64,000 nt of DNA from the NCBI GenBank assembly GCA_964416195.1, contig CAYQDB010000003.1:8555-72554 (forward strand), written 5' to 3'. Below, in pieces: positions 6,330 through 25,402 of this stretch (its first letter is position 1; the number at the start of each line of letters is the position of its first letter). This DNA comes from an uncultured Ignavibacteriales bacterium (GTDB taxonomy: Bacteria; Zixibacteria; MSB-5A5; GN15; FEB-12). Position numbers and translations under genes: made by a program. The notes beneath the pieces are model-generated. The model searched no databases and was not told the DNA's origin. It saw nothing but the letters and a program-made list of their open reading frames with translations.

Positions 6330-6625
6330 TGTCATTGCGAGCAACAGCGTGGCAATCTCGGTTATTGAATGCAAACAAGATAGCCATATCACTTGGCTCC
6401 TCGCTATGACGCTTGTCATGTTTTTCAACAAGCACATTTGCCTGGTGCCCGGGTGCCCCATAGCTTGCTATGGGAAGCCTTAATCCAAGCACCCTTTTTC
6501 ATCCTTCGACTCCGCTCAGGATGACTATGTACGAGAGATAGGAGTGGCTTGCCACCGTCATGGTGAGCCGTCCATCCGCCTTTGGCGGACTGTCGGGCGA
6601 AGTCGAACAATGACATGTTTGTGAC
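6330..6625. repeat. cluster of dispersed hairpin repeats (cattgcgag...gcaatc type and TCGACTCCGCTC-core type)
   Basis: gtcattgcgagcaacagcgtggcaatc; tcatcct-tcgactccgctc-aggatga (7-bp stem); gtcatggtgagc...gaagtcgaacaatgac. The track ORFs here (6241..6492, 6425..6667) are built from these repeats. Confidence 0.6.
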
Positions 6626-6939: not shown

Positions 6940-9735
6940 ATGGAGTCTTTGGGAACATTCAGGAGAAAACGTGATTGCTTGGGGTTTGTCCTCTCTGCGA
7001 CTCTCGTTGCCGTTCTGATGGTGGCAACAGTCCCGGTTTATGGGCAGTTGACAAGTGAAGATATAGCTGTCCTGGAAGAACAAGGCAGGGAAGAGGGCTG
7101 GTCTTTTACGGTCGGCGAGAACCCTGCTACTCAGTATTCGCTCGATCAATTGTGCGGTTTGAAGGAGCCGGATAATTGGCGTGAAGGTGCCCGCTTTGAT
7201 CCCTGTAAGCCGGGTCGGGGCCTTCCGGTGTCATTCGATTGGCGGGATTCGGCTGGTTGTACGCCGGTGAAGGCTCAAGATGGCTGCGGAAGCTGCTGGG
7301 CGTTTGGAACGGTGGGGCCTCTTGAATGCAACATCAAGATCAGAGATGGTGTGACAGTGGACCTGTCAGAACAGTGGCTGGTAAGCTGTAATCGTGATGG
7401 GTGGGATTGTGATGGTGGCTGGTTTGCGCATGACTATCATGAGTGGAAGACGGATGATTGCGATAGTACCAGGGCAGTTTTGGAAGCCGATTTTCCGTAT
7501 GTTGCTTGGGACGCTCCATGTAGTTGTCCCTATCCTCACTCCTATGGCATAGAATCCTGGGCCTATATCGGCGATGCATATAGTGTTCCAAGTGTTGCGG
7601 CTATGAAGCAGGCGATTCTGGATTACGGTCCCATCTCCGTCGCTGTTTACGCCAATTCAGCTATGCAGGCGTACACTGGCGGTGTATTCAACGGCTGTTC
7701 GGGCGGTACTGTCAATCACGCCATTACTCTTGTTGGCTGGGATGATAACCAGGGGACGGACGGCGTTTGGTTCATGCGCAATTCATGGGGCCCCGGCTGG
7801 GGTGAAGGTGGCGGATACATGCGCATTCCCTATGGCTGCTCCAGTATCGGTTATGCTGCCTGTTACGTGAACTACATCACAGTGCGGAATATCTCTTTTG
7901 AGTATCCCAATGGAATCCCCACGAGCGTTATTCCAGAAGAGACGACTGTATTCGAGGTGGTTGTGAATGGCGTTGGGGGTGGAACACCAGTACCAGGCAG
8001 TGGGCAACTTCATTATGCCATCAACGGCGGATCGGTCCAAACCGAGTCGATGATGGAGAAATTGCTCAATCACTATGAGGCGACTTTGCCAGAGCTTACC
8101 TGTGGTGACCGGTTGGAGTTCTATATCAGTGTAGAGGAGTCTACCGATGGAAGGGTATATGATCCCGATCCCAGCTCCCCTAACGTGGCCATTCCGGCTA
8201 CTAACCTGATTACAGTTTTTGAGGATAACTTTGAAACCAACAAAGGATGGACAGTGTCAGGCGATGCAGTCGACGGACAGTGGGATCGCGGAGTTCCGGT
8301 CGGCGGCGGCGATCGCGGTGACCCGACAACCGATTTCGACGGTTCCGGGAGATGCTATCTCACCGACAACGTGGATGGCGATTCCGATGTTGACGGCGGG
8401 ACAACAATACTGACCTCTCCTGTCTTTGATCTCTCAGATGGTAACGCGCAGATACATTATGCCCGCTGGTACTCGAATGATTTCGGCAGTACTCCCCACA
8501 GCGATGTCTTTGAGGTATACATATCGAACAATAACGGCGGTAATTGGGTCCTTGTTGAAACTGTGGGGCCTACCGAAGAGGCTTCCGGTGGCTGGTATGA
8601 ACACGCTTTCTGGGTGAGTGACTTTATCACACCTACTACTCAGATGCGGCTGCGCTTTGACGCGTCTGACCTGGGTGATGGCTCTGTTGTTGAAGCCGGT
8701 ATCGATGATGTTAACATTACAGTATATGAGTGCGGGGTTTCGACGCCGCAGATCATCACCGTGGCTCTTCCCGATTGGACAATCAATAGCCCATATTCCC
8801 AGCAGTTGCAGGCAATGGGGGGTACCGGGACACTGACCTGGATTGACGAGTACGGTGATCTTATAGGAAGTGGCTTGATGCTCTCTTCTGCCGGTCTGTT
8901 GTCCGGGACTCCGGTCTCTACCGGGCAAATCTCATTCACTGCGCAGGTGACGGATGAAGCCCTTGAATCTGACGAAAGACTCTTCAGCTTTTTCATTAAC
9001 GCTGCGCTGGTCATTGTTACAGATTCGCTACCAAACTGGACAATTGATCAAGCCTATAGTGAGCAGTTGCAGGTAACCGGTGGCACCGGGATAAAGGTCT
9101 GGTCGGATAGGAACGGCGATCTCAGCGGGACGGGTTTGAGCCTGTCCATGACCGGAGTGCTATCGGGTGTGCCTGGTGTGGCATCAGTCATAACTTTTAC
9201 GGCTCACGTGAGCGATGATGGGGGAGACACTGAAGATAAACCCTTCTCGTTTACGATAAACCCTGCTGTAGCAATTACTACCGACTCGCTTCCGGCTGGT
9301 ACCGAGGGTGATCAGTATTCAGAGCAGCTTGAGGCCAGCGGGGGCACGGGCACAAGGACCTGGGATGACAAAGACCATGACCTCGAAGGAACCGGAATCA
9401 GTCTTTCACCAGCCGGTCTCCTTTCCGGAACACCGATTGACACCGGTACGGTTAATTTCACCGCACAGGTTGAAGACATAGCTGGCAGTACCGATGAGAG
9501 GCTGTTTACTCTTATCATCGGACCGTCGTACATCTGCGGTGACGTTGACGGCAGCGATTCCGATCCAAATGTCGCTGACGTAACCTACCTTGTTGATTAT
9601 CTCTTTTTGGGTGGGCCACCACCACAGCCTATAGAAGCGGCCGATGTCGATGGTGCAAATGGTGTGAACATTGCGGACCTGACTTACTTAGTGAACTACC
9701 TGTTTGGAGAAGGGGCCGAATTGAACTGCCCCTGA
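6940..9735 (+). CDS. secreted papain-like (C1A) cysteine protease with beta-sandwich module, four Ig-like repeats and C-terminal dockerin-like domain
   Basis: ATG at 6940 precedes a signal peptide. Catalytic motifs: QDGCGSCWAFG, VNHAITLVGWD, NSWGPGWGEGGY. Four repeats of LP.WT....YS.QL...GGTG...W. C-terminus has two DVDG...V(N)(I/V)AD(L/V)TYLV.YLF segments. Confidence 0.85.
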   Translation: MESLGTFRRKRDCLGFVLSATLVAVLMVATVPVYGQLTSEDIAVLEEQGREEGWSFTVGENPATQYSLDQLCGLKEPDNWREGARFDPCKPGRGLPVSFDWRDSAGCTPVKAQDGCGSCWAFGTVGPLECNIKIRDGVTVDLSEQWLVSCNRDGWDCDGGWFAHDYHEWKTDDCDSTRAVLEADFPYVAWDAPCSCPYPHSYGIESWAYIGDAYSVPSVAAMKQAILDYGPISVAVYANSAMQAYTGGVFNGCSGGTVNHAITLVGWDDNQGTDGVWFMRNSWGPGWGEGGGYMRIPYGCSSIGYAACYVNYITVRNISFEYPNGIPTSVIPEETTVFEVVVNGVGGGTPVPGSGQLHYAINGGSVQTESMMEKLLNHYEATLPELTCGDRLEFYISVEESTDGRVYDPDPSSPNVAIPATNLITVFEDNFETNKGWTVSGDAVDGQWDRGVPVGGGDRGDPTTDFDGSGRCYLTDNVDGDSDVDGGTTILTSPVFDLSDGNAQIHYARWYSNDFGSTPHSDVFEVYISNNNGGNWVLVETVGPTEEASGGWYEHAFWVSDFITPTTQMRLRFDASDLGDGSVVEAGIDDVNITVYECGVSTPQIITVALPDWTINSPYSQQLQAMGGTGTLTWIDEYGDLIGSGLMLSSAGLLSGTPVSTGQISFTAQVTDEALESDERLFSFFINAALVIVTDSLPNWTIDQAYSEQLQVTGGTGIKVWSDRNGDLSGTGLSLSMTGVLSGVPGVASVITFTAHVSDDGGDTEDKPFSFTINPAVAITTDSLPAGTEGDQYSEQLEASGGTGTRTWDDKDHDLEGTGISLSPAGLLSGTPIDTGTVNFTAQVEDIAGSTDERLFTLIIGPSYICGDVDGSDSDPNVADVTYLVDYLFLGGPPPQPIEAADVDGANGVNIADLTYLVNYLFGEGAELNCP

Positions 9736-16339: not shown

Positions 16340-16585
16340 AAGGCATGTCACCCTGAGCGGAGTCGAAGGACCCTGTCATCCTGCCTGACGGAGTGTCATG
16401 GTTCGACTCCGCTCACCATGACTATAAGAGAAAGAGTAGGTCGGGTTTCTCGGTCGTCCGCCTGAGGCGAGCTCCCTCGGAACGCCGACCTACGGGTCTT
16501 CCGTTTATATAGTCAAGCACACGTACTGTCTCCAGAAAGGTAGGTCGGGTTCCGATCCGCCTATTGCGGGGAGAAACCCGACATA
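16340..16585. repeat. cluster of dispersed hairpin repeats
   Basis: gagcggagtcga core; gtcatggt-tcgactccgctc-accatgac (8-bp stem); gtaggtcgg...ccgacctac (9-bp stem); gtcgggtt...aacccgac. Confidence 0.6.
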
Positions 16586-17949: not shown

Positions 17950-18258
17950 ATGTTGTTTCAGTTAGCAATGTTTCCCACCAGTAAGGGGACGGTGTCGGTC
18001 TCGGCGGATGTCGCCAAAGTAATCGACATTATTGACAAGTCCGGCCTGCCCTACAAGCTGAGTGCCATGTCAACCGTAATCGAGGGCGACTGGGAGCCGG
18101 TGATGAAGGTTATCAATAAGGCGCGCCTGACGCTGCGCAAGAGGCACAACCGCATTTACATTGTGCTGACGATTGATGACCGCAAAGGAGCCAGAAACCG
18201 CCTGACCGGTAAGGTCAAGTCGATTGAAAACAAACTCAAGCGAGAGGTGAAAAAGTAA
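17950..18258 (+). CDS. MTH1187/YkoF-family (DUF77) thiamine-binding-like protein
   Basis: ATG at 17950, MLFQLAMFPTSKG...STVIEGDW, about 100 aa as typical of the family. Confidence 0.65.
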   Translation: MLFQLAMFPTSKGTVSVSADVAKVIDIIDKSGLPYKLSAMSTVIEGDWEPVMKVINKARLTLRKRHNRIYIVLTIDDRKGARNRLTGKVKSIENKLKREVKK

Positions 18259-18264
18259 TGGAAA

Positions 18265-18383
18265 TTGCTTTTTCTGTCGGTTCTTGCACGCCAAAGGCGG
18301 GTGTGAACCGACAGTTTGCCAGTTGGTCGTCAGGTCACATCCGCTTTCGCGGACAAGACCTGACGAAACTCAGGGAAAAAAGG
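18265..18383. repeat. 119-bp double-hairpin insertion between DUF77 gene and cutA, flanked by 30-nt junction duplication
   Basis: Flanks 18235-18264 and 18384-18413 match 28/30. Inside: ctgtcggttc...gaaccgacag (10-bp stem) and tcgtcaggtc...gacctgacga (10-bp stem with an inner tccgc/gcgga hairpin). Confidence 0.65.
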
Positions 18384-18406
18384 CTCAAGCGAGAGGTGAG
18401 GAAGTA

Positions 18407-18727
18407 ATGGAAACAGTGCGAGTAGTTTTTATCAGTATCCCGCGCGACGAGGCCAACAAACTGGCGCGCACCCTGGTGGAGAAACGTCTGGCCGCCTGTA
18501 TCAACATTGTACCCAAGATCGAGTCCTATTTCCGGTGGGTTAACAAAGTGGAGCATGACGAGGAGGCGCTTTTGATTGCCAAAACCACCCAGCAACGCAT
18601 CGACGAATTGATGCTCTATGTGCAAGCCAACCACCCCTACGAATTCCCCGAGGTAATATCATTGCCTTTATCCGAAGGCCTCCCCGACTACGTCGCCTGG
18701 GTGAAGAAGGAGACAAAACAGGGGTAG
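18407..18727 (+). CDS. cutA: divalent-cation tolerance protein CutA
   Basis: ATG at 18407. LAACINIVP.IESYFRW...EEALLIAKT...HPYEFPEVISLP matches the CutA1 family. Confidence 0.85.
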   Translation: METVRVVFISIPRDEANKLARTLVEKRLAACINIVPKIESYFRWVNKVEHDEEALLIAKTTQQRIDELMLYVQANHPYEFPEVISLPLSEGLPDYVAWVKKETKQG

Positions 18728-19499: not shown

Positions 19500-19965
19500 T
19501 GTTACACTTCGACTCCGAAACTGTGTCATAAATCGCAATTCACGCTTTCTCATGGTGGCGTCAGGCGTCTCTGCCTGACGCTTGCACGACGTATTGGTGT
19601 ATTGCGTATTCACTTGTGGCTGTCGGGCAGAGACACCCGACAGCACCTTGTAAGCTCAGGACAGGCAGGGCTTTTGACCTACGGGGATTGTTGGGGCAGA
19701 TGTGGACATCTGCCACCCACGATACTCGCCTTTGGCGTACTGCCCACAGTACACGGATGTCATTCCCGCGAAAGCGGGAATCCAGGTACTTAACGTTGAG
19801 AAAAGAGACACGAATGGATTCCTGCTTCCGCAGGAATGACGGGCGAGTAGCCTTATTGAGTCAGGTGCAAAAGGAACCTGAGCTACTAGGGCAGATGTGG
19901 ACATCTGCCGCATACAAGCAAGAAGGGTATGACAACATAGGCGAATTGGCGAGCCGAACACGGAA
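19500..19965. repeat. intergenic array of at least six unrelated perfect hairpins (REP/MITE-like)
   Basis: Hairpins at 19558-19581 (9 bp), 19620-19643 (8 bp), 19695-19714 and 19890-19909 (identical ggcagatgtggacatctgcc), 19762-19781 (attcccgc gaaa gcgggaat) and 19818-19837 (attcctgc ttcc gcaggaat). Confidence 0.7.
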
Positions 19966-19966
19966 A

Positions 19967-20029
19967 ATGAAATACTCCAAGTGCGGACATGAGGAAGATA
20001 AGGTCATAGGCAGCAAAAGTGGATATTGA
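19967..20029 (+). pseudogene. decayed duplicate of the nrdR 5' end (20-codon remnant ORF)
   Basis: 19967-20005 matches nrdR 21115-21153 at 35/39 nt. Remnant MKYSKCGHEEDKVIGSKSGY versus NrdR MKCPKCGHEEDKVVDSRPS. The first zinc-ribbon Cys is lost. Confidence 0.65.
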
Positions 20030-20972
20030 AATCCTGGGAACGGAGTCTCTGGGGGTCAGGGGGCTTTCGTGTTTTGTCAGAGCCGGAAATCAAAGAATAC
20101 TGATCGATCCGGGTATTGCCTTAGGTTACATCCGCCACGGGTTGCTGCCGCACCCTTTTCAGGTAGCCGTTGACGAAAGGATACAGAAGAAAATCGTGCA
20201 GAGATGGTCTGACGCTACGGATATAGTCATCAGCCATTTTCATGGAGACCATGTTCCCCTTGCGGATGCCAACCCGTATCAGTTCAATATCAGGAAGGTA
20301 ACCGGATTGAATCCGCACGTCAGGATATGGACAAGGAGTCTGTCGCATCTCTCAATGGTGCAAAAACGAAGAGCGGAGTCCCTTTCCACAGTATTACGCA
20401 CTGATCTGTTACCGGCGGAAGGGACCACACAGGGAATAATGACTTTTTCCGGGCAGGTATGTCATGGCGAAAAAAGCAGCCATCTGGGAACTGTAATAAT
20501 GACCAGGATTGAGGAAGATGGTGTGTTTGTGCACGCTTCTGATATTCAGCTTCTCAACGACGAAGCGATTTCCATAATACTGTCCTGGAAACCTGATATT
20601 GTATTCGCTGCCGGACCGCCTCTCTACCTGTACCACAAGGTTTTCAAAAGCAAAATGAGAATAGCCTGGCATAATGCCAGAATTCTTTCAGAGCGGGTTG
20701 GCATTTTAATTCTTGATCATCACTTGATGAGGAGTTATGAAGGGATTACATGGCTGAAGCGTCTATCGGTGGAGACAGGGAACAAGGTTATCTGCGGAGC
20801 GGACTTCATGGGGAAGCCGCGGATGTTGCTCGAAGCCAGGCGCAGGGACCTGTACAAGGATATGCCTGTCCCGTCCGGCTGGCATGAAGCCTATGGCAGG
20901 GGTGAGGTAAGCACTGATGCTTATTGGAGGTCAGCAAAGAGACTCTACAAGGAGATGAGGCTAAGCGACTAA
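20019..20972 (+). CDS. MBL-fold metallo-hydrolase, archaeal UPF0282-like
   Basis: SHFHGDH motif. The N-terminus LGTESLGVRGLSCFV....RILIDPGIALG..R.GLLPHP recalls the UPF0282 family. GTG start overlaps the nrdR remnant ORF. Confidence 0.65.
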   Translation: MDIEILGTESLGVRGLSCFVRAGNQRILIDPGIALGYIRHGLLPHPFQVAVDERIQKKIVQRWSDATDIVISHFHGDHVPLADANPYQFNIRKVTGLNPHVRIWTRSLSHLSMVQKRRAESLSTVLRTDLLPAEGTTQGIMTFSGQVCHGEKSSHLGTVIMTRIEEDGVFVHASDIQLLNDEAISIILSWKPDIVFAAGPPLYLYHKVFKSKMRIAWHNARILSERVGILILDHHLMRSYEGITWLKRLSVETGNKVICGADFMGKPRMLLEARRRDLYKDMPVPSGWHEAYGRGEVSTDAYWRSAKRLYKEMRLSD

Positions 20973-21114
20973 GGAAGTAGCGTAGGTCGAAGCCCCGTGG
21001 TTTCGACAAAGATATGAGACTTTGACGTGTGACCTACATGAATAAAGAGATTACCCACAGCAAAGCTGTGGGGTACCTCTGGTGTGTGAACGAACAATCA
21101 TGATTGGTTACTGA

Positions 21115-21567
21115 ATGAAATGCCCTAAGTGTGGACATGAGGAAGATAAGGTCGTGGATAGCAGGCCGTCACAGGATGGCCGGGCGGTGCGCCGTCGCCG
21201 TGAATGCCTGAAGTGCCACGAACGCTTCACGACATACGAGTATGTTGAGCACGGCACATTAACCGTCCTCAAGTCCGACGGCCGTAGGGAGCCGTTTGAC
21301 CGCAATAAAATCCTGACCGGCATCAAGCTGGCCTGCAACAAACGCCCGGTGACCGGCCAGCAGATGCAGTCAATGCTGGACAGTATCGAGGCCGAGCTCA
21401 GCGCCCGTTTTCGCACTGACGTCACCAGCAAGGAGATCGGTGAGGTGGTTATGCAGAAACTACGCGAGGTGGACGAGATCGCCTATGTCCGCTTTGCGTC
21501 GGTATACCGCCGTTTCCAGGATGCGGCTGAGTTCCTTGAGGAGATCAAGAAGCTGCTCGACAAGTAA
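21115..21567 (+). CDS. nrdR: transcriptional repressor NrdR
   Basis: MKCPKCGHEEDKVVDSR...RRRRECLKCHERFTTYE zinc ribbon plus ATP-cone. Confidence 0.95.
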   Translation: MKCPKCGHEEDKVVDSRPSQDGRAVRRRRECLKCHERFTTYEYVEHGTLTVLKSDGRREPFDRNKILTGIKLACNKRPVTGQQMQSMLDSIEAELSARFRTDVTSKEIGEVVMQKLREVDEIAYVRFASVYRRFQDAAEFLEEIKKLLDK

Positions 21568-21609: not shown

Positions 21610-21690
21610 CACTATTTCTTTGTTGTCATGGTGAGCGGAGTTGAACTATGAACGTTGCCCCTCGACTCCGCTCGGGGTGACGGTATCGTG
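21610..21690. repeat. hairpin repeats of the TCGACTCCGCTC-core family
   Basis: gtcatggtgagcggagttgaac and cccctcgactccgctcggggtgac. nrdR is also flanked by CCCACAGC-loop-GCTGTGGG hairpins at 21054-21072 and 21580-21597. Confidence 0.55.
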
Positions 21691-22535: not shown

Positions 22536-22564
22536 TTGACAATCAGACTGCCCAAGGCTAAATT
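22536..22564 (+). promoter_or_regulatory. sigma70-type promoter (TTGACA-N17-TAAATT) upstream of the truncated tRNA-Gly copy
   Basis: TTGACA at 22536-22541, a 17-nt spacer, TAAATT at 22559-22564, about 20 nt before position 1 of the tRNA sequence. Confidence 0.45.
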
Positions 22565-22584
22565 GCATCAGGTAATATTGGATA

Positions 22585-22630
22585 GCGGGCGTAATTCAGT
22601 GGTAGAATGCAAGCTTCCCAAGCTTGACGC
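22585..22630 (+). pseudogene. truncated tRNA-Gly (nt 1-46 only); left direct repeat of the islet
   Basis: 46/46 identical to 25313-25358. The T arm and 3' acceptor strand are absent. Confidence 0.85.
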
Positions 22631-22793
22631 TACCAGAACAAGTCTAATTGTCTGCCATAACTCCAAGTCTTTCAAGGGGGAACGCCAATATTGAGATCAA
22701 CCCATCTCCGATAATTGGGGCTATATAAGACAAGCCCCAAAGAGATGAAGCCGGAGAATTAGTAGGTGGTTTTTGGTTTGCCGACTCGCCTAC

Positions 22794-22825
22794 AAAAAAG
22801 CCAACAGTTAACGAGTGCTGTGGGC
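22794..22825 (-). terminator. rho-independent terminator of the islet operon
   Basis: The minus strand reads gcccacag-(10-nt loop)-ctgttggc (7/8 bp) followed by tttttt, about 20 nt after the stop at 22844. Confidence 0.5.
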
Positions 22826-22843
22826 TTTCTGTTATCTGTTTAT

Positions 22844-23266
22844 TCACCAGTTGCCGGAATCGACAATTTGCTGCTGTTGCTTTCGATCTGCATACCAATG
22901 TCCATTCCATAGAATTCGCCGGTATTTGTATTCCTCATTATCGCTGTTAGCGTATCTGATGCTGAATGTACGCTCACCGTCAATGCGGTGTCCTACAGCA
23001 TCAACCACAGTGCCGACAAATACCATTGGCGATTGGCTATTAACACGATAATACAGCTTGACTCCAGGATAGATTCGAGGTTCACACCATCTGGACTGTT
23101 CAACAGCAGAGAGGGTGTGCTGTGATTTTTCTACTTGTGGTTTACTGGTTTGTGGTTTGGTATTCTGTACATTGTAGCCCGTTATTGCTGAAAAAACAAT
23201 AAACGCCAATACTGCAGCTATAATAAAAAGCCAGCCTGTTGCTGAGGGATTCTTATATTGTTTCAT
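22844..23266 (-). CDS. hypothetical N-terminally anchored protein (islet ORF4)
   Basis: ATG at 23266 with an agagg SD. MKQYKNPSATGW followed by a TM helix. No family recognised. Confidence 0.55.
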   Translation of the reverse strand: MKQYKNPSATGWLFIIAAVLAFIVFSAITGYNVQNTKPQTSKPQVEKSQHTLSAVEQSRWCEPRIYPGVKLYYRVNSQSPMVFVGTVVDAVGHRIDGERTFSIRYANSDNEEYKYRRILWNGHWYADRKQQQQIVDSGNW

Positions 23267-23279
23267 TGTCAAACCTCTG

Positions 23280-23672
23280 TTAAAGAATAGTCCAATTGTT
23301 AGGATTGTGAGGATTGCCGCCATCCCATACCACTTTACAATCCGCCACCGAAGAATCATAAGCAGCACCGTTCACATAAAGTATCCAGTATCCTGTAACA
23401 GTCCACGTATACTTACTACTGTCTTTATTGATGACAGTAATGGTGTCTATTGCACCATGATATTCCATATTATAATCCCACGGAACAGGAGTTTTGTGTA
23501 AGTCCCGCATCATGTCTTTATATACACGAGCTATAAATTTGTTGACAACTACTGTTGCGTCATCTGTGGTAGGCGGATGTGGCACATATCTGTTATAAAG
23601 CCAAGACCAAGCAGCAATTTGACTTATTATTGCTACCACTGCCAGTACTACAATCCATCTTGTTTTCATCAC
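23280..23672 (-). CDS. hypothetical N-terminally anchored protein (islet ORF3), paralogue of ORF1
   Basis: TM helix, PPTTDDA, C-terminal GGNPHNPNNWTIL (compare ORF1 GRNPAISHNWRIL). Confidence 0.55.
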   Translation of the reverse strand: MMKTRWIVVLAVVAIISQIAAWSWLYNRYVPHPPTTDDATVVVNKFIARVYKDMMRDLHKTPVPWDYNMEYHGAIDTITVINKDSSKYTWTVTGYWILYVNGAAYDSSVADCKVVWDGGNPHNPNNWTIL

Positions 23673-23691
23673 GACCTCTTAATTTTGTTAT

Positions 23692-24156
23692 TTAAGGCAG
23701 GCTATAATGAGCCTCTGCGATTACATATTCTCCACTGCTGGCGGATGTCTTCATTTTTACACCATCTACATAAATCGACACATGCAAACCCACACATGCT
23801 GGATCCGTCAATTGAGCACTGACGTATAGAAAATTGCCTTTTATCGCTCCAAACGAATACGTCCAAGGTTCGTTCCTTTTGAAGTATGCTTCTTTTTGTG
23901 ATGTTCCACCATCAGCATTGGTGTAAGTAATAAAAACTTCAGAATATTCAGTATATCCGGTGCGGACCTCATATTCGATATTGTGTACTGTGTATTCGTC
24001 AACATAAGCAGAAACAGAGACATTTTCACTATATGCTGGTTTCTTGTTGTTGTGACCAGTACCAGTATGTGTCAAAGCTATGATGAATACTATAAAAACA
24101 GGTACGATAACGAGCCACAACAAAAAGGGAGTTTTTTTCTTTTGCTGTTTCATCAC
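23692..24156 (-). CDS. hypothetical N-terminally anchored beta-rich protein (islet ORF2)
   Basis: TM helix followed by YEV..G....V.ITYTNADGG..Q......PW.......VSAQ.......V.IYVDG, loosely MmpS-like by eye. Confidence 0.5.
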   Translation of the reverse strand: MMKQQKKKTPFLLWLVIVPVFIVFIIALTHTGTGHNNKKPAYSENVSVSAYVDEYTVHNIEYEVRTGYTEYSEVFITYTNADGGTSQKEAYFKRNEPWTYSFGAIKGNFLYVSAQLTDPACVGLHVSIYVDGVKMKTSASSGEYVIAEAHYSLP

Positions 24157-24620
24157 GACCTCCTTTCACCAATTGCTCGATTGCGATTGTCAACTGACAT
24201 AAGGCTGGTTCCCATTGAAAAATAAAGGATTCGCCAATTATGAGATATCGCCGGATTGCGACCCATCCATTGCATATCCAATACTAATGTTGTCGAATCT
24301 ACAACGGTATTACCCTTATCTTCGGACATCAAGAACCAGCCTTCGGCTCTCCACACATTATACTGCATCTTGGGATACAAATCTGCATCTCTCTTCGATA
24401 CTGTAAGACAGTAATGTGTGTAATAACCCTCCTCCAAACCAATACTTGCAGCCACAAGAGCAGAATCACAGAGCGTCTTCATTGCATTCACCGCATCTAA
24501 CGTTGTTGGTCGCAGTGGCATACCATACCAATATTGTGCTGTTACCAGCAGAACAACAGAAGCGACAATAGTAATAGCAGTCCACCAACCTGCTGAAAGA
24601 TGATCCTTATATTGTTTCAT
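24153..24620 (-). CDS. hypothetical N-terminally anchored protein (islet ORF1)
   Basis: MKQYKDHLSAGWW followed by a TM helix. 4-nt overlap with ORF2. Shares a 15-nt start region (cttatattgtttcat) with ORF4. Confidence 0.55.
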   Translation of the reverse strand: MKQYKDHLSAGWWTAITIVASVVLLVTAQYWYGMPLRPTTLDAVNAMKTLCDSALVAASIGLEEGYYTHYCLTVSKRDADLYPKMQYNVWRAEGWFLMSEDKGNTVVDSTTLVLDMQWMGRNPAISHNWRILYFSMGTSLMSVDNRNRAIGERRS

Positions 24621-24676
24621 TTTATATTTCCCCCTAATTTAAAAGTTATCCATATACTTCATCGGCAATGGTGACC

Positions 24677-24826
24677 TTATTTATTATTAAGTAGTAGCAT
24701 CTCCATTTCGTCAGCAATATCTTCAAGCTGCGCATACTGTTTGCTGGTGCCAAATTCTGATTCGGTTAAATGCACACGTAGACGTATTACCAGATTATCA
24801 AGTATTTTATACATTATTACTGTCAT
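24677..24826 (-). CDS. possible 49-aa small ORF upstream of the islet operon
   Basis: MTVIMYKILDNLVIRLRVHLTESEFGTSKQYAQLEDIADEMEMLLLNNK. Below the track cutoff. Preceded by a possible 27-aa basic ORF at 24829..24912. Confidence 0.25.
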   Translation of the reverse strand: MTVIMYKILDNLVIRLRVHLTESEFGTSKQYAQLEDIADEMEMLLLNNK

Positions 24827-25162
24827 AACTACATTTCCTGCACCTGCTGTTTTGATTTAGTTTGCATTTTCATCTTACGCCTGCCTTTCTTGGTGGATGA
24901 GTATGTCATCATTCTAATTTATTAGAATGGCAAAGAACGTGCCGATTGATCGAAGCTAAGGAGAGGTATTGCCCTTGGCCTTTGTTTTGGATGTACTCTC
25001 GCACGGTATATACCTTAAACGCTTACGTACGGGGAAGAGCTTCCGAGACGCACTCCTGTGGACAGGAGCCGGTGGATTAGACCAGCATATATAGAGCAAG
25101 ACCTATATTGGTAAACTGTATATATAATTTGTGGATTTGTTCCTACATCTTCGATATATCTG

Positions 25163-25191
25163 TTGACTATATTGGAATGCGCCAATATAAT
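25163..25191 (+). promoter_or_regulatory. sigma70-type promoter (TTGACT-N17-TATAAT) inside the islet, pointing at the intact tRNA-Gly
   Basis: TTGACT at 25163-25168, a 17-nt spacer, TATAAT at 25186-25191, about 120 nt upstream of the tRNA. Confidence 0.4.
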
Positions 25192-25312
25192 ACACGCCTG
25201 TGCAACTTGACAGAGACGGCTTTGTGTATTTTTTTGTATATAGAGACATTTTGAGACGTCAAGTCTTGGAGATGAACAGTATCTCGAAGATGACGTTTCT
25301 TCTTGGAGACAA

Positions 25313-25384
25313 GCGGGCGTAATTCAGTGGTAGAATGCAAGCTTCCCAAGCTTGACGCCGTGGGTTCGAGTCCCATCGCCCGCT
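25313..25384 (+). tRNA. tRNA-Gly (anticodon CCC)
   Basis: 72-nt cloverleaf drawn by hand: acceptor gcgggcg/cgcccgc, D arm attc-agtggta-gaat, anticodon arm caagc-ttCCCaa-gcttg, T arm gtggg-ttcgagt-cccat. No encoded CCA. A T-run follows. Confidence 0.9.
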
Positions 25385-25402
25385 TTTTTTAATGGATGCG
25401 AC

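Follow-up and report, generated by a model that had tools for sequence, protein, structure and literature searches.

How did about 2.7 kb of DNA come to lie between a partial and an intact copy of one tRNA gene, with no recombinase gene to account for it? The question is raised by a locus of an uncultured Zixibacteria bacterium, in a stretch of 64,000 nucleotides (positions 8,555 to 72,554 of contig CAYQDB010000003.1, assembly GCA_964416195.1) that is referred to below as the window. The inserted DNA, hereafter the islet, is located between tatC and a gene encoding a DUF512 protein, at the gene for tRNA-Gly(CCC). A preliminary description of the locus had reported two identical repeats of 46 nt (47 nt with the preceding A) equal to the 5' half of the tRNA, and a repeat search confirmed them: 22584-22630 and 25312-25358 were identical at 47 of 47 positions and correspond to position -1 to 46 of tRNA-Gly(CCC). 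The two copies are named the attL and attR cores here, and the features of the site are as follows.

22584-22630, plus strand: attL core, the displaced 5' fragment of tRNA-Gly(CCC), position -1 to 46 (47/47 match to 25312-25358).
25312-25358, plus strand: attR core, the tRNA 5' part from the islet (47/47 match to attL; upstream islet DNA unalignable with the promoter region of relatives).
25313-25384, plus strand: regenerated intact tRNA-Gly(CCC) (ARAGORN; Rfam, 67.9 bits; 3' half, downstream T-run, and DUF512 start collinear with relatives).
22631-25311, unstranded: inserted islet between the repeats, 2,681 bp (GC about 0.40 versus about 0.52 in the flanks; missing from all relatives with the same synteny).
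Order at the attL junction: ATTGGATA + core + TACCAGAAC.
Order at the attR junction: GGAGACAA + core + CGTGGGTTC.
Predicted order at attB: ATTGGATA + core + CGTGGGTTC.
Predicted order at attP: GGAGACAA + core + TACCAGAAC.

In the repeat, the 5' strand of the acceptor stem and the D arm are followed by the complete anticodon arm (CAAGC-TTCCCAA-GCTTG) and by four more bases. ARAGORN found tRNA-Gly(CCC), at 25312-25385, as the sole tRNA of the 64-kb window, the Rfam tRNA model placed the intact tRNA at 25313-25384, and BLAST of the tRNA against the window yielded no further copy longer than 12 nt. The 5' fragment is located upstream of the intact tRNA-coding DNA (tDNA), on the same strand and 2,728 bp away. 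Four nucleotides past the anticodon stem, identity between the copies falls sharply from 47/47 to 12/26, and this sharp drop fits an att identity block rather than drift. The insert had been described as richer in AT than its flanks, and the composition of the window agreed with this, in that GC contents were 0.36-0.44 for the insert, compared with 0.50-0.56 for its flanks. As a separate observation, the last base of the repeat (22630/25358) is C in both copies of the window and T in all ten close relatives and in most of the 54 metagenomic loci described below; this C could come from the element or be particular to the lineage.

The ancestral state of the locus was deduced from relatives. The nearest genome matches of the DUF512 protein were metagenome-assembled genomes of Candidatus Zixiibacteriota, and its closest homologue among 5.8 billion protein clusters was 79% identical, so that these data offered no near-identical genome without the islet. 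In six metagenomic loci (L038, L056, L024, L042, L050, and L039), tatC, the promoter, one intact tRNA-Gly gene, the DUF512 gene, and der were found together with no islet; the gap between tatC and the tRNA was about 80-300 nt (80-130 nt in five of them), and protein identities were 60-79% (60-77% for TatC). More broadly, metagenome contigs carrying the 45-nt 5' half of the tRNA comprised 54 loci, each with one intact tRNA, and such an islet was present in 0 of these 54. The duplication had been attributed to the insertion, and the islet-less relatives among the metagenomic loci indeed lacked the partial copy, which ties the duplication to the insertion. A deletion of 2,728 bp, joining 22630 to 25359, restores the layout of the relatives exactly. 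In the window, the right-hand 3' half, the T-run, and the DUF512 start align with the relatives, and none of them could be aligned to the sequence that precedes the right copy. Because the deletion restores this layout, the promoter on the left and the 3' half on the right belong to the ancestral site, and a further 5' part of the tRNA came in with the insert. The islet is an insertion into the tRNA gene, and the polarity of this insertion is 5'.

Contigs of the same strain, from four JGI samples and several Logan runs, all carried the islet and were a handful of single-nucleotide polymorphisms (SNPs) apart. Exact-protein look-ups of TatC, the DUF512 protein, and the islet proteins returned only islet-bearing contigs, with no empty site in the population.

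Some related loci differed in other ways. In the closest relatives, in which the DUF512 protein is about 79% identical, a gene for a 485-aa polytopic membrane protein is located between tatC and the tRNA promoter (L025, 766-2223; L051, 3417-4874); the interval between tatC and the tRNA is thus variable even without insertion into the tRNA. In L078-L081, there is no tRNA, and an ABC/FtsX transporter gene abuts the DUF512 gene. In a separate lineage (L054, 3859-4167; L032, L043, L044, L047, L048, L052, L057, L068, and L076), tRNA-Gly(CCC) is accompanied by nested scars, namely a 5' fragment of 52 nt, together with its upstream region, about 136 nt ahead of the gene and a 20-nt 3' fragment (position 53-72) about 16 nt after it. 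The breaks of both scars are in the T loop, and they are consistent with footprints of site-specific recombination or with tandem duplication.

The promoters and the structured ends of the islet include the following.

22536-22564, plus strand: ancestral tRNA-Gly promoter TTGACA-N17-TAAATT, now ahead of the partial copy (10/12 match to consensus; aligns with the promoter of relatives).
25163-25191, plus strand: islet-borne promoter-like site TTGACT-N17-TATAAT (11/12 match; 121 nt upstream of the live tRNA).
24910-24929, unstranded: perfect 9-bp palindrome CATTCTAAT-TT-ATTAGAATG, operator-like, upstream of the islet operon (self-reverse-complement BLAST match).
25253-25299, plus strand: long but imperfect inverted repeat (or hairpin), separated from the core by 12 nt, carrying CAAGTCTTGGAG.

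Both promoter sequences had been pointed out in the preliminary description, together with the proposal that the chromosomal promoter was stranded on the partial copy and that the live copy was preceded by islet DNA with a promoter of its own. The alignments and scans supported each of these points. The left promoter aligned with a conserved GTTGACAA...TA(A/C)ATT box that is located about 20 nt before tRNA-Gly in relatives (loci L015-L017, L038, L056, L025, L051, L049, L024, L042, L050, L039, and L072), and the chromosomal promoter is stranded on the partial copy. Upstream of the live copy there is only islet DNA, with one strong promoter-like site. Cut off from its native promoter, the rebuilt tRNA has to be transcribed from islet DNA. 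A consensus scan of the 64-kb window found only two sites with at least 11 of 12 matches, and about 2% of shuffles of the 430-nt right arm yielded a promoter-like site of this quality. The only good promoter candidate for the rebuilt tRNA is 25163-25191, which most plausibly drives it and would give a structured leader of 121 nt. The fold of 25196-25312 had a z-score of -3.5, and 0 of 200 shuffles folded equally well.

Non-coding DNA makes up about 23% of the islet and is concentrated at both ends, in arms of 213 nt and about 485 nt. The CAAGTCTTGGAG sequence of the 25253-25299 hairpin recurs beside the left core. A CAAGTCT/CTCCAAG motif, similar to the anticodon stem, occurs in three copies adjoining both cores, with a marginal p of about 0.03 for a motif that was picked post hoc. 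An inverted repeat, TATATTGG-N6-CCAATATA (25167-25189), is located inside the promoter-like site facing the tRNA. Together with the palindrome at 24910-24929, it gives the divergent control region of the islet two operator-like palindromes; a regulator gene was not evident on the islet.

The left copy had been described as lacking the T arm and the 3' acceptor strand. The T arm is indeed broken; however, the acceptor stem is still closed by the next 26 nt of islet DNA.

22631-22656, plus strand: islet-derived pseudo 3' part completing a degenerate tRNA-like sequence (Rfam score over 22585-22656; acceptor pairing 7/7).

This sequence (TACCAGAACAAGTCTAATTGTCTGCC) forms seven of seven pairs with the 5' acceptor strand, with three C-to-T differences that produce three G-U acceptor pairs, and is identical to the genuine 3' half of the tRNA at 12 of 26 positions. 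The Rfam tRNA model matched 22585-22656 over its full length with 37.1 bits, compared with a gathering score of 29. Only 4 of 5,348 islet 7-mers could close the acceptor stem, and at least 13 matches to the true 3' half were found in 6 of 5,310 islet 26-mers. A natural control, the 5' fragment of L057 followed by unrelated DNA, scored 27.5 bits and did so only by deleting the T arm. The left copy was not called by ARAGORN in the window scan and is predicted to be functionally dead. It looks like a degenerate whole tRNA, in which the 5' 47 nt are perfect and the rest has drifted, and the presence of this tRNA-like remnant at the left junction suggests that attP was derived from a whole tRNA. 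A tandem duplication of the tRNA followed by decay of the left copy was ruled out by the sharp boundary at which 47/47 identity gives way to 12/26.

No recombinase is encoded by the islet. None had been recognized in its reading frames before, and a six-frame translation of 22560-25400 searched against Pfam at E ≤ 1 agreed, with no integrase, resolvase, transposase, DDE, HUH/Rep, or Cas1 domain. Searches with Pfam, PHROG, PADLOC, and NCBIfam detected no relaxase or transfer domain in the islet. Elsewhere in the window, no integrase was found: the ten largest open reading frames (ORFs) upstream were housekeeping genes, and the genes downstream were signaling and flagellar genes according to the gene tables of the contig. 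The phage and plasmid collections contained no DNA similar to the islet, and neither the attL junction nor the anticodon-arm core was found in viral contigs. The sole viral contig with the same tRNA (L022) was a high-GC prophage of classical layout, with an integrase beside the tRNA's 3' end, and was set aside as unrelated. A split integrase gene of the SSV type was excluded because the circular junction (right arm, core, and left arm) has no long ORF. A transposon, an insertion sequence (IS), or a casposon was rejected as well: the ends of the islet have no paired inverted repeats, DDE, HUH, and Cas1 domains are missing, and the 47-nt duplication fits the 5' end of the tRNA. The target duplications of transposons, IS, and casposons are short, about 15 bp or less.

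The structure corresponds to the product of one reciprocal exchange between a chromosomal tRNA gene and a circular DNA with a 47-nt identity block. Three properties of this block argue for a specialized att site over chance homology. Its start is the tRNA's first base, in the portion that needs restoration; it spans the anticodon stem-loop, whose 5-bp inverted repeat and 7-nt spacer are arranged as in a tyrosine-recombinase core; and identity drops from 100% to 46% four bases beyond the anticodon stem. The anticodon stem-loop is a classic crossover site. On balance, we consider the locus to be probably a tRNA-targeted insertion of integrase type at the anticodon stem-loop, with reversed polarity, that is now an integrase-less islet flanked by att sites and resembling a cis-mobilizable element (CIME). 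According to this explanation, a horizontally acquired islet of 2.7 kb would have entered tRNA-Gly(CCC) by recombination between the chromosomal attB and a tRNA-like attP on a circular element. The catalyst would most likely have been a tyrosine-type integrase that is no longer, or was never, encoded on the islet. By integration, the chromosomal promoter would have been displaced to the left junction (attL) together with the original 5' part, which would there have been joined to the degenerate tRNA 3' remnant of the element; the working tRNA would have been rebuilt at attR from the 5' part of the element and the chromosomal 3' half. The integrase may have been lost through decay or excision of a tandem partner, or may always have been supplied in trans, and movement would be possible only with a cognate integrase supplied in trans or from an adjacent integrating element. 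The data show the insertion, its polarity, the stranded promoter, and the absence of a recombinase; we infer that the crossover occurred in the anticodon loop, that an integrase catalyzed it, that the islet promoter is used, and that the islet may still be mobile.

Several observations weigh against this explanation. The empty site is deduced across roughly a genus-level distance, because the nearest relative is 79% identical in DUF512. A cognate integrase, an excised circle, an empty site in the same population, and a related element were looked for in the collections searched, which for a related element were those of proteins, phages, plasmids, viral contigs, and metagenomes, and none was found. 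The islet proteins occur only on 7-8 contigs of one strain, always in the same context, which would fit a one-off acquisition equally well. Shared k-mers of the two arms of the islet were not enriched overall, and a set of arm-type repeats with strong statistical support was absent from the arms. Among the att-delimited islands of six nosocomial species, a survey found only 6% without an integrase vestige, and integrative elements were almost never smaller than 4 kb (bioRxiv 10.64898/2026.01.13.699239); by these figures, a clean 2.7-kb islet without any trace of an integrase gene is unusual for simple decay.

A second insertion, 2.5 kb from the islet and with the same geometry, affects nrdR. 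A 50-nt direct repeat (19966-20015 and 21114-21163, 84% identical) covers the first 16 or so codons of nrdR and starts 1-2 nt before its ATG, and of the two copies the upstream one has decayed (C3Y and other changes). The insert between the copies (20016-21113) contains a PRK04286-like gene of the metallo-beta-lactamase (MBL) fold at 20019-20972. No relative has an MBL gene at this site, and in relatives with nrdR here, nrdR directly follows a TPR or cutA gene.

These data were weighed under other explanations of the islet. One crossover within 47 nt of identity would yield exactly the observed structure if a small circle with a tRNA-Gly-like sequence, for example a plasmid or an excised fragment, had been inserted by RecA in the Campbell manner, and such a route agrees with the lack of an encoded recombinase and with the left junction, at which the incoming DNA appears to have carried a whole degenerate tRNA-like sequence. 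However, 47 nt is a very short homology, near the lower limit for efficient homologous recombination. In addition, the step from 100% to 46% and the left edge at the 5' end of the tRNA have the look of a selected att block rather than of a chance homologue, and the six-frame Pfam search found no replication gene on the 2.7 kb. We regard the RecA-dependent route as unlikely. A one-off insertion, illegitimate or facilitated by homology, that duplicated 47 nt by chance would make the islet fixed foreign DNA rather than a mobile element. The islet was found in no more than a single near-clonal population, each time at this site, its cargo has no relatives, and the MBL-fold insertion at nrdR 2.5 kb upstream, with its 50-nt copy of the 5' end of the target, may indicate a local, non-specific process. 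Such an event is nonetheless quite improbable in our estimate, with three features left unexplained: the start of the duplication at the tRNA 5' end and its span over the anticodon stem-loop, the in-register closure of the acceptor stem after the left copy, and the strong promoter-like site facing the regenerated tRNA.

The resemblance between the two insertions could also be taken as a sign of an unfamiliar mechanism, independent of a recombinase, that twice within a 5-kb stretch inserted DNA about 47-50 nt into a gene and regenerated its 5' end. The geometry is the same, the repeats are similar (47 nt, 100%; 50 nt, 84%), each starts 1-2 nt before the first base of its target, and neither insertion carries a recombinase. 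However, these are two cases only, the nrdR repeat has diverged, and the DNA inserted there is a conserved hypothetical MBL-fold gene without mobile features; no more examples emerged when 568 kb of related loci were compared with themselves by BLAST, and known integrases acting at the 5' ends of genes account for each case separately. We judge this mechanism very unlikely, and although the preliminary description had listed it among its options, it is not called for: a 5' core and the loss of an integrase both have precedents. A naturally recombinase-free integrative element of about 2.7 kb, equipped with an attP that mimics a tRNA, as a degenerate tRNA-Gly of full length, and with its own replacement promoter, and moved by a recombinase of the host or of a helper in a process that may also have produced the nrdR insertion, is likewise not a likely account of the islet. 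Least probable of all, and hardly credible in our opinion, is an assembly artifact, in which a small circle sharing a 47-mer was threaded into the chromosome by the assembler. The Logan contigs (k = 31) all break within the 47-nt repeat, and the GC content of the insert differs; however, breaks at k = 31 are expected at any repeat of 47 nt, five contigs from JGI, out of four samples, as well as the source contig run across attL or attR and extend for hundreds to thousands of bases to either side, and the attB or attP arrangement occurred on no contig.

The islet carries five co-oriented genes on the minus strand, on which the ORF list and the gene callers of public records agreed, and all plausible ORFs of the insert are on this strand.

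22794-22825, minus strand: terminator-like hairpin and U-run after the last islet gene (in the minus-strand fold of 22780-22840, a stem followed by UUUUUUG).
22844-23266, minus strand: ORF1, 140 aa, predicted N-terminal membrane helix (singleton cluster on same-strain contigs).
23280-23669, minus strand: ORF2, 129 aa, predicted N-terminal membrane helix, weak paralogue of ORF4 (BLASTP E = 8e-4 with ORF4).
23692-24153, minus strand: ORF3, 153 aa, predicted membrane helix and MmpS-like beta-sandwich (remote homology and fold).
24153-24620, minus strand: ORF4, 155 aa, predicted N-terminal membrane helix (only itself found in the protein collection).
24677-24826, minus strand: ORF5, 49 aa, leading gene of the islet operon (gene call present in the JGI and Logan records).

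The opposite-strand orientation of these genes and a terminator of their own at 22794-22825 had been described before. The hairpin and T-run were found, about 20 nt past the last stop codon, with a fold energy that was not significant against shuffles. The four larger proteins received no Pfam, PHROG, PADLOC, or NCBIfam assignment. With PADLOC, ORF5 weakly matched Cas2d in the N-terminal half of the latter (E = 1e-3, 17.6 bits); this match is without Pfam support and is probably due to chance. ORF1, ORF2, ORF4, and ORF5 had no relatives in the sequence collections searched, ORF2 had no homologue among the 5.8 billion clusters, and all five proteins formed singleton clusters found only on 7-8 same-strain contigs. 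ORF2 and ORF4 share a C-terminal GxNPxxxxNWxIL motif.

For ORF3, an exhaustive HMMER search found 523 remote homologues, several of which match PF05423 (Mycobact_memb, the MmpS family), and ORF3 itself was under the Pfam threshold for PF05423. Its AlphaFold model (pLDDT 86) consists of one helix and an eight-stranded sandwich, and the top Foldseek matches were MmpS5 structures (9mvz_A, E = 7e-7; 8em5_A, target-normalized TM 0.83). No gene for an MmpL/RND partner was present in the ORF list of the islet. The single-sequence structure model of ORF4 was unusable (pLDDT 41). Four cargo products are thus predicted to be membrane-anchored, one of them MmpS-like, and the cargo is, according to the models, a small operon for envelope-anchored proteins.

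Other repeats were observed in the window. Between the TPR gene and the nrdR fragment, 19500-19960 consists of about 470 nt of repeat-rich non-coding DNA, where the gap in relatives is only 16-37 nt. It contains a 21-nt palindrome, GGGCAGATGTGGACATCTGCC, twice (19694 and 19889) and several GC-rich hairpins, with the look of a miniature inverted-repeat element. A 39-nt direct repeat (18226-18264 and 18375-18413, 87%) flanks a 49-aa ORF between a thiamine-binding-like gene and cutA. When the window was compared with the same-strain contig L012, 21 of 22 differences were inside 18287-18664, and this SNP cluster points to a recombination tract or to a mini-insertion that is polymorphic. Hairpin repeats of 30 nt, TCATCCTTCGACTCCGCTCAGGATGACTAT and its variants, form a family in intergenic positions at 6499-6528, 16396-16425, and 21655-21684, with one copy between nrdR and tatC.

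If integration with reversed (5') polarity occurred as proposed, it cut the tRNA gene off from its conserved promoter and made it dependent on foreign DNA, and what the old promoter was left to transcribe is a dead-end sequence resembling a tRNA, possibly along with RNA antisense to the islet. Island finders that require an integrase and a minimum size miss small att-flanked islets. The locus also adds a data point for Zixibacteria, for which no described mobile elements were found in this analysis; by itself, it reveals no new recombination mechanism. IMEX elements, such as the CTX phage and TLC, have no recombinase of their own, use the host XerCD, and integrate at dif. Should the islet be a recombinase-free element, finders that require an integrase would miss a whole class, the tRNA-gene counterpart of the Xer-exploiting IMEX. 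The analogy with IMEX is conceptual only, with the islet located in a tRNA gene and not at dif.

Among known systems, the islet is most readily compared with the tDNA islands of Islander. Of the 3,919 islands in that collection, 159 have a 5' tDNA fragment and 3,760 have a 3' fragment (PMC4383910), and the rarity of a 5' core implied by the preliminary description was therefore overstated. The rule of Islander that a 5' fragment must lie upstream of the tDNA (PMC4383910) makes the arrangement of the islet an accepted configuration. As in Islander islands, foreign DNA is flanked by an intact tDNA on one side and by a cognate terminal fragment of like orientation on the other, and the islet is missing at the same site in related genomes and has a foreign composition. 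Its identity block spans the anticodon stem-loop, similar to the anticodon-centered class of Islander sites. Unlike these islands, the islet has no integrase gene and fails the integrase filter, its 2.7 kb are at the very bottom of the size range, and its host is an uncultured member of Zixibacteria.

The integrase-less state and the displaced promoter have counterparts elsewhere. CIMEs have lost their integration and transfer genes and kept attL and attR (PMC5704250), and the islet, like streptococcal CIMEs of the families of ICEs (integrative and conjugative elements) and IMEs (integrative mobilizable elements), keeps both sites without such genes. However, described CIMEs are derived from recognizable ICEs or IMEs, are located at the 3' ends of target genes, and have known helpers, whereas the islet has no detectable parent element, helper, or vestige of int, and its polarity is 5'. 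In islands of the dusA-associated integrase (DAI) type, sequence from the island takes the place of the target gene's 5' end, the original 5' end stays behind as a remnant, and putative promoters were predicted upstream once integration had occurred (PMC4482086). The islet follows the same logic in its stranded and replacement promoters. The dusA islands differ from the islet in having a protein-coding target, semi-conserved att sites of 21 bp, a large size, and their own integrase. By the figures of the nosocomial survey, the islet lies at the unusually small and clean end of a known spectrum. We class it as an island integrated in tDNA with 5' polarity, integrase-less and CIME-like in its present state, in Zixibacteria, and both of its odd features have precedents.

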